From Pseudomonadota bacterium (GTDB taxonomy: Bacteria; UBA10199; 2-02-FULL-44-16; JAAZCA01): DNA of 19,362 nt. The notes below the pieces were generated by a model. That model had not been told where the DNA came from and searched no databases. It saw only the letters and a list, made by a program, of their open reading frames with translations. Of the stretch, positions 2,179 through 15,441 are shown one piece after another (position 1 is the stretch's first letter; every line of letters starts with the position of its first letter). Made by a program: the position numbers and the translations under genes. Location: contig JAZDOG010000003.1 of the NCBI GenBank assembly GCA_043798915.1, positions 1-19,362 of the forward strand, given 5' to 3'.

Positions 2179-2231
2179 ATTATAAGTTTTTTATAATCGG
2201 GCTTGACGATTTGCCCGCCAGTCCGTACACT
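2179..2231 (+). promoter_or_regulatory. Sigma-70 promoter of the ATPase gene with an upstream palindromic operator-like site
   Basis: TTGACG (2203-2208)-17 bp-TACACT (2226-2231); inverted repeat ATTATAA-N5-TTATAAT at 2179-2197. Confidence 0.65.
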
Positions 2232-2240
2232 GCCCTCATT

Positions 2241-3368
2241 ATGGAAAATCCCTTCAGGTACGGAGAAGAAGTCACCGGCGAAGATTTCTGCAACAGGCGC
2301 AAGGAGATCCGCAGGCTCACCGACTACATCGGCGCAGCCAACAAAGTCCTGCTGTACTCGCCTCGCCGCTGGGGGAAGACGTCCCTCATAAAGGAGACCA
2401 TTTCGCGCCTGCCTAAGAGAAAACACCTTATCATCTATGCCGACCTCTATCCCATCCTCAAGGAGGAGCACTTCAGCCAGATCGTTGCCCAGGGCTTTGC
2501 CAGGTCGCTCGCATCGCCGCTGCAGAAGGCGGTTGCTACCCTGCGCTCGCTGCTTACATCATTCATCCCCAAGGTTACGCTGGATGCCTCGGGGGAGGCG
2601 AATTTTGAATTTGGGTTCGATTCCACGAAGAAGGGAACAGCTCTGGCCGAGGAGCTGCTGGATGCGATCGAGGAGAGCGCGCGAAAATCCAAGAAGCGAG
2701 CCGTGGTGATCCTCGACGAGTTTCAACAGGTCGGCGAGCTCGCCGACGATCGACTGGAAAAGGTGCTCAGATCGAAAATACAAGCGCAAAGGCACGTCTG
2801 CTACATCTTTGCCGGCAGCAAACGGCATCTCCTCGTAGAGATGTTTTCAAATCCGTCCCGTCCTTTTTATAAGAGCGCCATCCATTTTCCTCTCGGCGCC
2901 ATCCCGCCGGAGGAGATGAAGACATTCATATCGAAGAAATTCGAGGCCAGAGGCCGAGTGGCCGACGATGCCGCGCTTGCCGAAATACTGGAGACAGCGG
3001 AGAACCACTCATACCACGTACAACAGCTCTGTTTCCACATATGGGAAACCGCGGCCGAACGGCGGCGGATCGACAGGGAAACGATATCGAATGCAGTGGA
3101 GCGTATACTTGTCTCTGAAAATGCCTCCTACCACAATACGTGGAGCCTGCTGACTCGTTCGCAGAAATTGGCGCTCAAGGCCCTTGCCGGCATCAGGGCT
3201 GGCGAGACACCTTTCTCGATGGATTTCCTGAACCGCGCGGGCCTCTCGTCGGCGGACGCCTTCCGCAAGGCCCTTGAGTCGCTGGTCGCCAAGGAACTTG
3301 TCGAGAAGGAGAACGGGGGATACAGGATATCCGATGTCTTCCTCAAACGGTGGCTGTCGAAACTTTAA
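2241..3368 (+). CDS. Archaeal-type AAA/P-loop ATPase (ATPase_2-like) with probable C-terminal winged helix
   Basis: N-terminal NPF.YG..V.GEDFCNR..E, Walker A SPRRWGKTS, Walker B VVILDEFQ, IFAGS, and C-terminal LESLVAKELV..GYRISD.FLKRWL. The ATG at 2241 matches the usual family start. Confidence 0.9.
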   Translation: MENPFRYGEEVTGEDFCNRRKEIRRLTDYIGAANKVLLYSPRRWGKTSLIKETISRLPKRKHLIIYADLYPILKEEHFSQIVAQGFARSLASPLQKAVATLRSLLTSFIPKVTLDASGEANFEFGFDSTKKGTALAEELLDAIEESARKSKKRAVVILDEFQQVGELADDRLEKVLRSKIQAQRHVCYIFAGSKRHLLVEMFSNPSRPFYKSAIHFPLGAIPPEEMKTFISKKFEARGRVADDAALAEILETAENHSYHVQQLCFHIWETAAERRRIDRETISNAVERILVSENASYHNTWSLLTRSQKLALKALAGIRAGETPFSMDFLNRAGLSSADAFRKALESLVAKELVEKENGGYRISDVFLKRWLSKL

Positions 3369-3427
3369 CTTCGGAGGCCCCCCCCTCCCCACGTCCTGCA
3401 ACAGACAACTCCCCGGCTGGATTTGAT

Positions 3428-3456
3428 TTGAGTAATGAACGAAAAAATGCCACAAT
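3428..3456 (+). promoter_or_regulatory. Putative sigma-70 promoter for the HEPN-MNT pair
   Basis: TTGAGT (3428-3433)-17 bp-CACAAT (3451-3456) with an extended -10 TGn. Confidence 0.45.
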
Positions 3457-3478
3457 AACCTCCGAGACAATGGGACAT

Positions 3479-3889
3479 ATGAATCAACACCAGATAGATG
3501 AACTTGTGAGTTATTGGCTTATTACGGCCCAGCATGATTATAAGACTATGCAAAGCCTGTACAGGTCGCGGCGGTATTCAGACTGTTTGTTTTACGGTCA
3601 CATTGTCGTGGAAAAATCGCTAAAAGCATTGGTGGTGCAGGAAACAAAACAGTCGGCTCCCTATACACATGATCTGCTTGTGCTCCGTCAGCGGCTTGCC
3701 GATATTGAATTGAATGAAAGTGATTTGCAGTTGCTCGACGACGTGAATCGTTTCAACATCAGAGCTCGCTATCCTGATTTCAAATTGCGGTTCTACAAAC
3801 TATGCACTGCCGCCTACACGAGGCCGTATTATACCAAAATACAGGGTCTTTACAAAAAGCTATGTCAAAAAATCAGGCAAAAAAAATAG
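3479..3889 (+). CDS. HEPN domain protein (COG2250-like); start 3479 or 3470
   Basis: Pattern W...A..D......L....Y..CLF.GH..VEK.LKA, THDL and ARYPD. More AT-rich than the flanking core genes and overlaps the MNT gene. Confidence 0.88.
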   Translation: MNQHQIDELVSYWLITAQHDYKTMQSLYRSRRYSDCLFYGHIVVEKSLKALVVQETKQSAPYTHDLLVLRQRLADIELNESDLQLLDDVNRFNIRARYPDFKLRFYKLCTAAYTRPYYTKIQGLYKKLCQKIRQKK

Positions 3890-6756: not shown

Positions 6757-7305
6757 ATTCGACCATCATTTTTGGACACGAGGCGTGAGCGCAGGGATGA
6801 GCTCCGGGTGAACAGGCGGATAAGGGTGCCGGAGGTAAGGCTCCTGGGCGAGGATGGCGAACAGCTAGGAGTCTTCGCAACATATGAAGCGATCCGGCGC
6901 GCGGAAGAGGCGGGCCTCGATCTCGTGGAGATCTCGCCGGCGGCCAAACCGCCGGTTTGCAAGATCATGGACTACGGCAAGTACAAGTACGAGCAGCAGA
7001 AGAAGAAGCACGAGCAGAAGAAACACCAGGTGGTGGTCAAAATAAAAGAGATAAAGATGCGCGCCGCCACCGACGAACACGATTTTCAGACGAAGCTGCG
7101 CCACATCAAACGGTTTCTCGAGGAGGGGGATAAGGTCAAAATATCCATCCGCTTCCGTGGCCGCGAGATGGCGCACATAGACCTCGGCCAAGGGCGGATG
7201 AAGAAGGTGGTCGAGGAGTTGAGGGGTGTGGGCGAGGTAGAGAGCTTCCCGAAGATGGAGATGCGGCAGCTCTTCATGATGCTTGCCCCGGCGAAGAAAA
7301 AATGA
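6757..7305 (+). CDS. infC: Translation initiation factor IF-3, ATT start codon
   Basis: [38 protein letters not shown] and GDKVK...RFRGRE. AAGGAGGT is followed 6 nt later by an in-frame ATT at 6757. Confidence 0.97.
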
Positions 7306-7315
7306 ATTTTCTGGT

Positions 7316-7391
7316 TGTCATTGCGAGCGAAGCGAAGCAATCCCTCTGATGCCGAGAGATTGCTTCGTCGCTGCCGCTCCTCGCAATGACA
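7316..7391. repeat. Palindromic repeat element (TGTCATTGCGAG...CTCGCAATGACA), copy 1
   Basis: 12-bp terminal inverted repeat with inner stem cgaagcaatc/gattgcttcg. Its reverse complement shares 34 identical nt with 14390-14423. Confidence 0.92.
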
Positions 7392-7417: not shown

Positions 7418-7615
7418 ATGCCAAAATTGAAGACGAGAAAGGGTGCTGCAAAGCGCTTCAAAAAACTGAAGTCCGGCAAGATCAAGAGAAAGAGGTCGAA
7501 GCTCCGTCACATACTGTCGTCCAAGACGCGCAAACAGAAGAGCAGGCTGCGTTCCAGGGCCTATGTGCACAAGGCCGATCAGAAAAAAGTGGCGCGGTTG
7601 CTGATAGGGCAATAG
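7418..7615 (+). CDS. rpmI: 50S ribosomal protein L35
   Basis: [15 protein letters not shown]...GKIKR...LRHIL; GAGGAG SD precedes ATG 7418. Confidence 0.97.
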
Positions 7616-12964: not shown

Positions 12965-14035
12965 GTGTCCATGTCGCGCCAATCGAAAAAAATCCTTGTG
13001 GGCATGAGCGGCGGAGTCGATTCCTCCGTCGCCGCTGTCCTTCTGGCGAAGCAGGGCTTCGAGGTCGCAGGCGTTTCTCTGAATCTCCTCTCGTGCGATC
13101 GCCAGATCGAGCGCAGCTGCTGTGCGCCAGAGGACCGGATGGATGCGCGCGAGGTCTGCGCACAGATGGGTCTCGGGCATTCCGTCGTCGACTGCCGCTT
13201 GCTCTTCAGAGAGGCTGTGATCGATCCGTTTGTGAGCGAATATCTCCGCGGCCGCACGCCATCCCCATGCATCATCTGCAACGAGAGGGTGAAATTTCAG
13301 GCGCTCCTCAAGGAGGCCGATCGACAGGGTGCGCGTTACATCGCCACAGGCCACTATGCCAGGATCGCAGGCGGCGAGTCGTTCAGACTGCTCTGTGCGG
13401 AGGCGCGCGAGAAGGATCAGTCGTACTTTCTCTTCAGGATGAATCAGGAGGAACTTGCGAGGACTATCTTTCCGCTGGGCGCCATGACGAAAGGCGAGGT
13501 GAGGAAGACGGCATCCGAGTTCGGGCTCGCCACGCGCGACAAGCCCGAAAGCCAGGAGGTCTGCTTTGTCCCGGATGGCGATTGCGCGGCGTTTTTGGAG
13601 GCGCGCGAAGGATCCTCAATCAAGGGGCCCGGGAATTTTATCGATGCGCGCGGGCGCGTCCTCGGCCGACACCGCGGGATACACGCCTACACGATAGGCC
13701 AGCGCCGCGGACTTGGGTTTGGAATAGGCAGGAGGCAATACGTCGTGAGGATCGACCCTGAGAAAAATGAAATTGTCCTCGGCAGCGACAAGGAACTCCT
13801 GTGTTCGGAGATGACGGTGCGCGACGTCTCGTGGGTGGCCGGGAAGCCGGGAGTCCTCACGGAAGCCACAGTGAGGATCAGGTCGACGCATGCCGGAGAG
13901 AAAGCGGAGCTGTCTGCCGATGAGGATGGATGCATCCGCGTGAGGTTTGAAAGGCCGGTGCGCGCGATCGCCCCCGGCCAGGCGGCCGTGTTCTATCGCG
14001 AGGACGAGGTGATGGGGGGAGGGTGGATCGAATGA
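12965..14035 (+). CDS. mnmA: tRNA 2-thiouridine(34) synthase MnmA (start GTG 12965 or ATG 12971)
   Basis: PP-loop MSGGVDSSVAA, TPSPCIICN, ATGHYA, KDQSYFL, ESQEVCF, YTIGQRRGLG and APGQAAVFY. Confidence 0.98.
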   Translation: MSMSRQSKKILVGMSGGVDSSVAAVLLAKQGFEVAGVSLNLLSCDRQIERSCCAPEDRMDAREVCAQMGLGHSVVDCRLLFREAVIDPFVSEYLRGRTPSPCIICNERVKFQALLKEADRQGARYIATGHYARIAGGESFRLLCAEAREKDQSYFLFRMNQEELARTIFPLGAMTKGEVRKTASEFGLATRDKPESQEVCFVPDGDCAAFLEAREGSSIKGPGNFIDARGRVLGRHRGIHAYTIGQRRGLGFGIGRRQYVVRIDPEKNEIVLGSDKELLCSEMTVRDVSWVAGKPGVLTEATVRIRSTHAGEKAELSADEDGCIRVRFERPVRAIAPGQAAVFYREDEVMGGGWIE

Positions 14036-15441
14036 AGCGCGTCGCATTCATAACGCTTGGCTGCAAGGCCAACTGGGTCGACGGCGAGGAACTCGCCGCC
14101 GTCTGTCGTCGCGCTGGCCTTGCCGTCGTCCCGTTCGCCGATGAGGCGGATGCCTATGTCGTCAACACCTGCACGGTGACCGCCGTAGCGGACCAGCAGT
14201 CTCGCCAGCTCCTCCGCAGGGCTCGGCGACAAAATCCGGGTGCGCTGGTCGTTGCCACAGGTTGTCTTGGCGAGGTGGACGCATCCGCCATCGAGGCGAT
14301 CCCTGAGGTGGACCGTGTATTTGGCACATCCGATCGTGGGGAGATGCTTGAATATTTATTTGAGAGGCTTGGGTTCGAAATCGGAATGGTGTCATTGCGA
14401 GGAGCGGCAGCGACGAAGCAATCCCTTGGAGTCAAAGAGATTGCTTCGCTCCCGTCGGTCGCTCGCAATGACAGCAATGAGTTTTTCCAATCCCGCGCCC
14501 GGGCATTTCTGAAGATTCAGGACGGCTGTGATCGGCACTGTGCGTATTGCATCGTCCCGCGCGCGCGCGGCCTCGCGAGGAGCGTCCATGCCGGCGAGAT
14601 CGTCGATTCGTGCATTGCCCTTTCGCGTCATCACAGGGAGATTGTCCTCACCGGCATCGACATAGGGCAGTATCGCGATGAGGAGTGCGGCGATCTTCCG
14701 GGCCTCCTTGAGAGGTTGCTTTCAACGGATGGCCTGCCGCGGATAAGGATCAGCTCGATCCATCCGACGGTCGTGGACGGGCGGCTCCTGAGGTTCTTAT
14801 CATCGCCGGGAAAGATGTGCCGCCATGTGCACCTATCGATCCAGAGCTGTTCGGACACGGTGCTCAAAAGGATGGGCCGCAATTATTCGGCGGACGATGT
14901 GGCTCGGGCCGTATCCTCTCTCGTGGACGCTGTCCCCGGCATCGCTGTGACATGCGACCTGATCGCTGGCTTTCCGGGCGAAAGCGAGGGGGATCACCGC
15001 AGCACAGTTTCATTATTATCATCTTTGCCTCTTGCAGGCCTGCACGTATTTCCGTATTCTCTCCGCCTCGGCACGAGGGCGGCGGGGATGGATGGACAGG
15101 TGGCGCCCGGGGAGCGCAGAATGCGGGCGGCTGAAATCAGGACCATCGGGGCGGAGGCGAGGCGAAGGTTTCTGGATTCATTCATCGGAGAGGCGCTCGA
15201 TGTGATCGTCACATCGAGCGAACCGGATGCGGATGGCGCTGTATCGGCCTTCTCCGACAACGCAATTTCGATCGCACTTCCGGCCGACATCATCGGCTAC
15301 GGTGATATGGGCCGGGCGATCATAACCGGGGCCTCCGGCCTCAAGGCAAAGGGCAAATGGGATTCTCATCAGATGAAAAGGCGCTCTTCAAGCGCTTCGA
15401 AGAGCGGCTCGGCTATAAATTCAAGCGCAGGGAGCATCTGA
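14032..15441 (+). CDS. mtaB: MiaB/MtaB-family radical SAM tRNA methylthiotransferase, most like MtaB; carries an in-frame repeat insertion
   Basis: UPF0004 cysteines TLGCK.N, VNTCTVT and ATGC; radical SAM motif FLKIQDGCDRHCAYC; HVFPYS.R.GT.AA. ATGA overlap with the mnmA stop. Confidence 0.88.
   Translation: MKRVAFITLGCKANWVDGEELAAVCRRAGLAVVPFADEADAYVVNTCTVTAVADQQSRQLLRRARRQNPGALVVATGCLGEVDASAIEAIPEVDRVFGTSDRGEMLEYLFERLGFEIGMVSLRGAAATKQSLGVKEIASLPSVARNDSNEFFQSRARAFLKIQDGCDRHCAYCIVPRARGLARSVHAGEIVDSCIALSRHHREIVLTGIDIGQYRDEECGDLPGLLERLLSTDGLPRIRISSIHPTVVDGRLLRFLSSPGKMCRHVHLSIQSCSDTVLKRMGRNYSADDVARAVSSLVDAVPGIAVTCDLIAGFPGESEGDHRSTVSLLSSLPLAGLHVFPYSLRLGTRAAGMDGQVAPGERRMRAAEIRTIGAEARRRFLDSFIGEALDVIVTSSEPDADGAVSAFSDNAISIALPADIIGYGDMGRAIITGASGLKAKGKWDSHQMKRRSSSASKSGSAINSSAGSI
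14390..14473. repeat. Palindromic repeat element, copy 2, in frame within mtaB
   Basis: TGTCATTGCGAG (14390-14401)...CTCGCAATGACA (14462-14473), 84 bp, in the opposite orientation to copy 1. Confidence 0.92.

Follow-up and report, generated by a model that had tools for sequence, protein, structure and literature searches.

A palindromic repeat read in frame within the MtaB domain linker of an uncultured bacterium is most likely a tolerated passenger

How can the gene of a modifying enzyme carry a complete palindromic repeat between two of its domains and still be read from end to end? The question is raised by mtaB in a 19,362-nt stretch of DNA from an uncultured Pseudomonadota bacterium (contig JAZDOG010000003.1 of assembly GCA_043798915.1). 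This stretch, hereafter the window, is the whole of one contig (C89) of a genome (G000) of 2.34 Mb, assembled in 105 contigs and 97% complete. An 84-nt element lies within mtaB at 14390..14473. Our analysis points to a copy of a dispersed palindromic repeat that was inserted in frame in the linker of MtaB and is most likely carried as a tolerated passenger, a reading to which we give a probability of about 0.8.

The element (+ strand) is best described as a palindromic repeat of the TGTC-tagged REP-dimer (repetitive extragenic palindrome) or MITE-like (miniature inverted-repeat transposable element) kind, on the evidence of exact 12-nt ends, an nhmmer E value of 2e-22, a hairpin z score of about -6 and foreign copies that match from 14390. 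Its left terminal inverted repeat, TGTCATTGCGAG, occupies 14390..14401 and its right one, CTCGCAATGACA, 14462..14473 (both +); the second is the exact complement of the first, so that the inverted ends are perfect and the element has the 84 bp and 12-bp termini ascribed to it in an earlier note made from the window alone. A search of the window for the 12-mer TGTCATTGCGAG with up to one mismatch returned four sites, all of them exact, against an expectation of 0.14, and none of 200 shuffled sequences reached four. The tag TGTC is present at all four element termini in the window, and in each arm ATTGC...GCAAT follows directly 3' of it. The whole copy folds as a single hairpin, at -52.5 kcal/mol as RNA (z -6.3) and -27.6 kcal/mol as DNA (z -5.8), values equalled by none of 200 shuffles in either case. 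Single arms form a 5-bp ATTGC/GCAAT stem enclosing 12-19 variable nucleotides, with energies of -1.8 to -3.0 kcal/mol and z scores of -0.2 to +1.6; alone they fold no better than shuffles, and the stable structure is that of arm against arm. Independent confirmation of the left boundary came from a metagenome run that did not include this organism, in which many foreign contigs matched 14390-14423 only and 15 of them diverged exactly before 14390. On the 3' side the element is adjoined by GCAATGA (14474..14480, +), a direct repeat of 14465-14471; the earlier note had pointed it out and it is indeed there, yet the other copies have no such flanking repeat, so it is not shown to exceed chance. 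At the gathering score Rfam 15 found only two transfer RNAs in the window and nothing at the element, the best of the sub-threshold look-alikes, all microRNA hairpins, scoring 33.6 bits against a gathering score of 90. Neither Pfam nor NCBIfam matched a family in the six translated frames of the two window copies.

The gene itself is a 472-codon open reading frame (ORF) at 14023..15441 (+) without stop or frameshift, counted from GTG 14023 and recognized by the ORF listing, its domains and a score of 369.3 bits to TIGR01579 (MtaB), above the curated cut-off of 357.05. In the database the cluster of this very protein is listed at 469 aa, as a start at ATG 14032 would give. There is no second MtaB in the genome, the next best paralogue being 32% identical. 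Read from the GTG, the 28 codons that the element contributes are residues 123-150, encoded by 14389..14472 (+), one base to the left of the element limits, with a GGC-like codon split as G/TG...GAC A/GC. Three of the six frames of this copy are free of stops. The insert sits in the linker, UPF0004 (residues 6-101) on one side and Radical_SAM (164-331) on the other. Both the in-frame reading and the linker position had been proposed in the earlier note, and both stand with the one-base offset.

Comparison with orthologues supported an insertion and not an old linker segment. The peptide occurs in none of 22 orthologues from relatives of the same class and in none of the 41 nearest homologues from a collection of 5.8 billion proteins, and at the DNA level the segment is 89% identical to another copy of the repeat. 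A word search of the same collection with residues 117-156 recovered the protein itself only, among four candidates; such a search needs shared exact 5-mers and says little about related inserts. From the invariant G101 to the near-invariant R158 there are 56 residues here compared with 29-49 (median 37) in the 41 homologues and 24-55 in the 22 relatives, and the window protein minus its insert would have 28. These lengths, together with the absence of the peptide from homologues, fit a plain insertion into a short linker, although a few original linker residues may have been lost alongside.

The rest of the enzyme appears intact. In an alignment of 60 sequences C14, C50, C81, C169, C173 and C176 are invariant columns, and all of them are kept here, as are the remaining invariant columns. 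An AlphaFold2 model built on this alignment has a mean predicted local distance difference test score (pLDDT) of 89.7 and a predicted template modelling score (pTM) of 0.88. The structure prediction that the earlier note had proposed thus gave a confident fold, with pLDDT below 50 at two places only, the insert (126-150) and the C-terminal tail (454-472). That tail is rich in serine and its coding sequence overlaps the start of the listed rnc ORF by 85 nt (15357-15441); either the end of mtaB or the start of rnc may be misplaced.

The element is one member of a family in its own genome. A second copy of 76 nt, on the - strand at 7316..7391, lies between infC (6772-7305) and rpmI (7418-7615), has exact ends and is 83% identical overall to the mtaB copy, with 68 nt at 87%. 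As had been noted earlier, the last 34 nt of this copy, when reverse-complemented, are identical to the start of the mtaB copy; base 35 differs. Since the intergenic copy stands inside the conserved infC-rpmI-rplT operon its hairpin is probably transcribed in the operon mRNA. A profile search of the genome recovered 10 copies in full length and about ten more that are partial or divergent. Compared with six other copies the mtaB element is 76-89% identical, the closest being those on contigs C92 (89%) and C37 (89%), and the similarity to the C92 copy ends exactly at the 12-nt ends. Exact 12-nt ends number 11 on the left and 12 on the right across the genome, a T precedes all 14 intact left ends inspected and an A follows all 16 right ends. 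A looser scan for termini, allowing up to two mismatches, gave about as many hits as chance alone would and was set aside; of the 56 one-mismatch matches to an 11-mer, many may likewise be due to chance, an estimate made without a control.

Ten long frames spanning a copy were examined in this genome. For nine of them, which have domains downstream of the element only or no domain at all, there was no evidence of an intragenic position; in the case of PriA, for instance, the first domain begins 30 residues past the element. The tenth is truly intragenic. It is a SPASM-type radical SAM gene (C99:6777-7883, - strand; loci L034 and L043) with the element at 7116-7207, in which the radical SAM domain (29-184), the element-coded CHREEPAGRRGDPLETVVSTGLPRRFAPRNDI (about 226-256) and a cysteine-rich C-terminal part follow each other in the same frame. 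The linker of this protein is hypervariable in 42 homologues, several of which look repeat-coded. This copy shares about 20 further bases past its right end with its nearest relative, from which it follows that the limits differ between subfamilies.

Outside this genome the exact-ends pattern was found in 8 of 31 relatives. Across the phylum 19 of 93 genomes had it, at 1 to 91 copies each and at 38-91 in G005, G046, G047 and G080; the reversed control pattern had no match in any of the 93. A scan with one genome per species returned at least 124 stretches from many phyla. As titled, with the labels of metagenome-assembled genomes (MAGs) taken at face value, they come from Patescibacteria, Bacteroidota, Cyanobacteria, several classes of Proteobacteria and Chloroflexota, as well as Planctomycetota, Nitrospirae, Verrucomicrobia, Gemmatimonadetes and Clostridia. 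The 82 copies taken from other genomes are 71-94 nt long and have in common the 12-nt ends and an inner block, GAAGCAATC / GATTGCTTC; the sequence between these and in the loop is variable. In a genome of the sister genus (G005) we sampled 40 copies, drawn from 50 listed of a total of 96 with seven at contig starts and the last three left out. T precedes GTC in all 40, and T and A flank 38. Near-identical copies in this genome are nested in a 209-nt composite repeat with 18-nt inverted ends of its own (L182-L207; for example L189 and L195, about 1421-1629). Many of its contigs end at this composite, where the nested element breaks the assembly.

The closest published counterparts are the short palindromic repeats that Di Nocera, De Gregorio and Rocco (2013, PMC3733652) sorted into GTAG- and CGTC-tagged superfamilies. 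In the CGTC group the tag is an unpaired terminal tetranucleotide, often TGTC and in other variants CCTC, the stems begin with A-T and the units are mostly inverted dimers (PMC3733652). The group is described from several phyla with no dedicated transposase known, and it includes Neisseria dRS3 as well as the Rickettsia conorii elements RPE-6 (CGTC-1) and RPE-4 (CGTC-4), RPE standing for Rickettsia palindromic element. When they lie within ORFs, CGTC dimers code for 20-30 aa of housekeeping proteins in several phyla, with DNA-repair and tRNA/RNA enzymes prominent among them, and the R. conorii peptides in Additional file 3 of that paper include SFLRKQES...DSRFRGND, VIPAKAGI and CHSRRSGNP. Our element resembles this group in its TGTC tag, its A-T stem start and its two inverted units with the tags outward. 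The layout in mtaB, with its 28 aa, is that of the R. conorii 'D' entries in the same file, and the R. conorii peptide frames correspond to the SLRG...ARND, VIA... and CHCE... frames of the element. In the families CGTC-1 to -4 a stem of 8-9 bp encloses a loop of 4-5 nt (PMC3733652), in contrast to the arms found here with their 5-bp stem and 12-19-nt interior; because such arms lack a stable fold of their own, the element does not appear to be a member of the four families as described there. The inner block GAAGCAATC is not mentioned in the available text of the paper, whose consensus figure was not part of the comparison. No paper on this particular sequence was found by sequence or peptide words, in a search that lay outside figures and most subscription journals.

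In-frame copies also occur elsewhere. Among the 82 copies of other phyla six lie in long frames and one of these is real, at L053:1201-1289, where a UvrA from a MAG titled Gammaproteobacteria carries SVIASKAKQSHSTGSANNGIATSPLAPRNDN in frame between two ATPase modules. Di Nocera et al. (PMC3733652) list comparable cases of uvrA interrupted by REPs. In the sister-genus genome G005 a copy at L196:1501-1571 (contig C26) is read in frame between the DUF6531 domain and the RHS repeats of an RHS-repeat protein that exceeds 1023 aa. A third case concerns MtaB itself: in a relative of the same order (G013, locus L012) a TGTC-tagged hairpin of 26 nt stands twice, in direct orientation, in the MtaB linker and is translated as DSRFRGNDK and DSHFRGNDK. 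The string DSRFRGND is in the R. conorii list (PMC3733652), and this match with CGTC-1 (RPE-6) entries indicates that the MtaB linker was hit independently in another family of the order. The frame used depends on the gene, giving CHCE...PRND in the RHS protein and SVIAS...PRNDN in UvrA. The SPASM gene, the RHS protein and the G013 linker thus support the earlier note's view of repeats as contributors of protein sequence in this lineage; the view does not hold as a novelty outside Rickettsia, given the intragenic dimers already listed from several phyla (PMC3733652). The note had further proposed to test whether intragenic copies are enriched for lengths divisible by three, and such an enrichment was not borne out. 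The four in-frame copies measure 84, 94, 89 and 73 nt from end to end, of which one alone is a multiple of three. The 82 copies of other phyla fall 34/28/20 into length classes 0, 1 and 2 modulo 3, and 13 of 30 non-composite copies in G005 have a length divisible by three. As in-frame copies are mostly not of such length, the frame must often be rescued through slight alterations at the junctions or because the limits differ.

Taken together, these data suggest how the present arrangement could have arisen. The 84 nt are a copy of a non-autonomous palindromic repeat composed of two inverted arms, TGTC and ATTGCGAG ... GAAGCAATC, joined by a short loop. This copy would have entered a glycine codon of the flexible linker that joins the N-terminal methylthiotransferase domain to the radical SAM core. 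Because 84 is a multiple of three and the frame in use is among the three of this copy that lack stops, 28 residues were added and the gene was left unbroken. Most likely the peptide is carried as a passenger, forming a disordered loop at the surface and devoid of a function of its own. Selection would purge frame-shifting or stop-containing insertions and those that strike a folded part, and a copy such as this one would persist. MtaB would accordingly be expected to work still and to tolerate the loop, and the copy probably arrived by a transposition-like spread.

Several observations weigh against this reading or limit it. The collections held no near-identical genome and no insert-free allele, the best MtaB homologue being 58-61% identical; there is consequently no empty site to compare and the insertion cannot be dated. 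Among sequencing runs one DNA run (0.04 of words) and no RNA run came up as a match; the DNA run yielded foreign copies of the arms and short weak pieces and left this organism uncovered. The low pLDDT of the insert is explained in part by the alignment, which has no homologues there. None of the inspected copies in the genome has a target-site duplication or an abutting direct repeat, and no exact ends bound a unit of 0.4-8 kb that could be an autonomous parent, in a genome 97% complete in 105 contigs where an unassembled insertion sequence (IS) is possible. Mobility is therefore deduced from copy number and spread. The burst of copies in G005 is no proof that the 84-nt unit moves alone, as those copies lie inside the 209-nt composite.

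Three other explanations of the locus deserve consideration. The insertion may have inactivated or crippled mtaB, the open frame being that of a young pseudogene and 2-methylthio-N6-threonylcarbamoyladenosine (ms2t6A) being dispensable. Perfect 12-nt ends and a nearly perfect stem are what a recent event would leave, the ratio of nonsynonymous to synonymous substitutions (dN/dS) is not computable for want of a close relative, and a hairpin of -52 kcal/mol in the mRNA could hinder translation. A gene in decay is nevertheless hard to reconcile with 472 codons free of stops and frameshifts, retention of the six cluster cysteines and the other invariant columns, a TIGR01579 score that exceeds the curated cut-off and a confident predicted fold on both sides of the insert, in a linker whose length varies naturally from 24 to 55 residues among relatives. 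We consider a crippled gene improbable.

It is a little less probable again that the peptide has been co-opted and is now of use to MtaB, perhaps as a loop for regulation or for a new interaction. Such inserts lie at domain boundaries in two radical SAM enzymes of this genome, and the G013 relative has a different repeat in its MtaB linker, both of which would be in keeping with a role. Against it, the peptide is unique to its own protein, which stood alone among the four candidates from 5.8 billion proteins; it is the DNA palindrome that is conserved and not the peptide, with frames that differ between genes; and the insert has no structure in the model and no Pfam or NCBIfam family in any frame. 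The least probable of the three, with only a slight chance, is that the assembler of this metagenome-derived genome placed a repeat in mtaB by mistake. The repeat does disturb assembly, as seen from copies at contig ends in the 105-contig assembly (C48 and C73) and very often in G005. A false join would, however, link unrelated loci, and here the two sides of the repeat are correctly ordered parts of a single gene and share a reading frame, with an insert that differs from every other copy (at most 89% identity). A tolerated passenger copy remains the reading that we prefer.

Insertions of this kind are already documented, and the mtaB case is a fresh example whose ends are related to those of some Rickettsia elements. 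A 2024 review (PMC10969869) calls in-frame fusions by intragenic MITEs 'not unusual'. Like RPE-1 (Ogata et al., via PMC10969869), the family provides in-frame palindromes in unrelated housekeeping genes, in translational fusions that are regarded as compatible with the protein fold. At about 150 bp RPE-1 is longer and has a conserved peptide of its own, whereas the present element has 71-94 nt, a variable middle and frames that depend on the gene. With the REPINs mobilized in the REP-associated tyrosine transposase (RAYT) system (Bertels and Rainey 2011, PMC3116915) it shares two inverted short repeats and a spacer, a hairpin and the lack of a target duplication, and it differs from them in having no GTAG tag. 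ERIC/RU repeats (PMC2759123) and the QMITEs of Coxiella (PMC5896051) are likewise small and non-autonomous, and where they overlap ORFs they supply residues to the protein. They are larger, at 100-400 bp, and QMITEs have direct repeats and mostly alter the 3' ends of genes, not internal linkers. A MITE derived from an IS would have the terminal inverted repeats and small size seen here; the want of a target-site duplication and of a parent element in G000 sets our element apart.

The case is a clean one of exactly three-fold length from an uncultured lineage far from Rickettsia, added to the known intragenic palindromic repeats, and it suggests that the domain linker of MtaB can accommodate 28 extra residues. 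For annotation the family is a source of many spurious small ORFs, odd 'insertions' in alignments and broken assemblies. Of more interest than the insertion itself are the agent of the element's movement and the conservation of its 12-nt ends, letter for letter, over so many phyla. RAYTs were considered as mobilisers. Of 31 relatives 28 have genes of the Y1_Tnp family, irrespective of whether they carry the element; none of the three Y1_Tnp loci in G000 is flanked by it, and the ten best loci of the relatives are unflanked, with one single-mismatch match to the terminus (L177). There was thus no association by presence or by flanks and a RAYT was rejected. Across genomes titled as more than 10 phyla the 12-nt ends and a 9-nt inner block are letter-identical and the middles variable. 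We would tentatively speculate, regarding it as possible but doubtful, that the TGTC-ATTGCGAG...GAAGCAATC palindrome is a distinct and so far undescribed branch of the tagged REPs, moved or maintained by a widely shared enzyme, and that it is a recurrent source of linker peptides through preferential survival in interdomain linkers (MtaB, SPASM radical SAM, UvrA, RHS).

Two contigs of G000 start with near-identical Y1_Tnp-like genes of 325-338 aa (C93:1-1018 and C71:1-978) that are not flanked by palindromes, which suggests a multi-copy element of its own. Within the window mtaB belongs to a same-strand run of thrS, infC, rpmI, rplT, pheS, pheT, a MerR-family regulator, a hexapeptide-repeat transferase, mnmA, mtaB, rnc, a superoxide dismutase and era. 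An imperfect palindrome unrelated to the element lies at 1050-1147; its arms of 32 nt show 75% complementarity and are separated by 34 nt, and the palindrome is rich in GGGGAGGG/CCCCTCCC. Upstream of a tRNA and thrS we observed a gene with an ATPase_2/AAA domain (2211-3889) whose end is overlapped by a HEPN-domain gene, and the two may form a defence or toxin-antitoxin-like pair.

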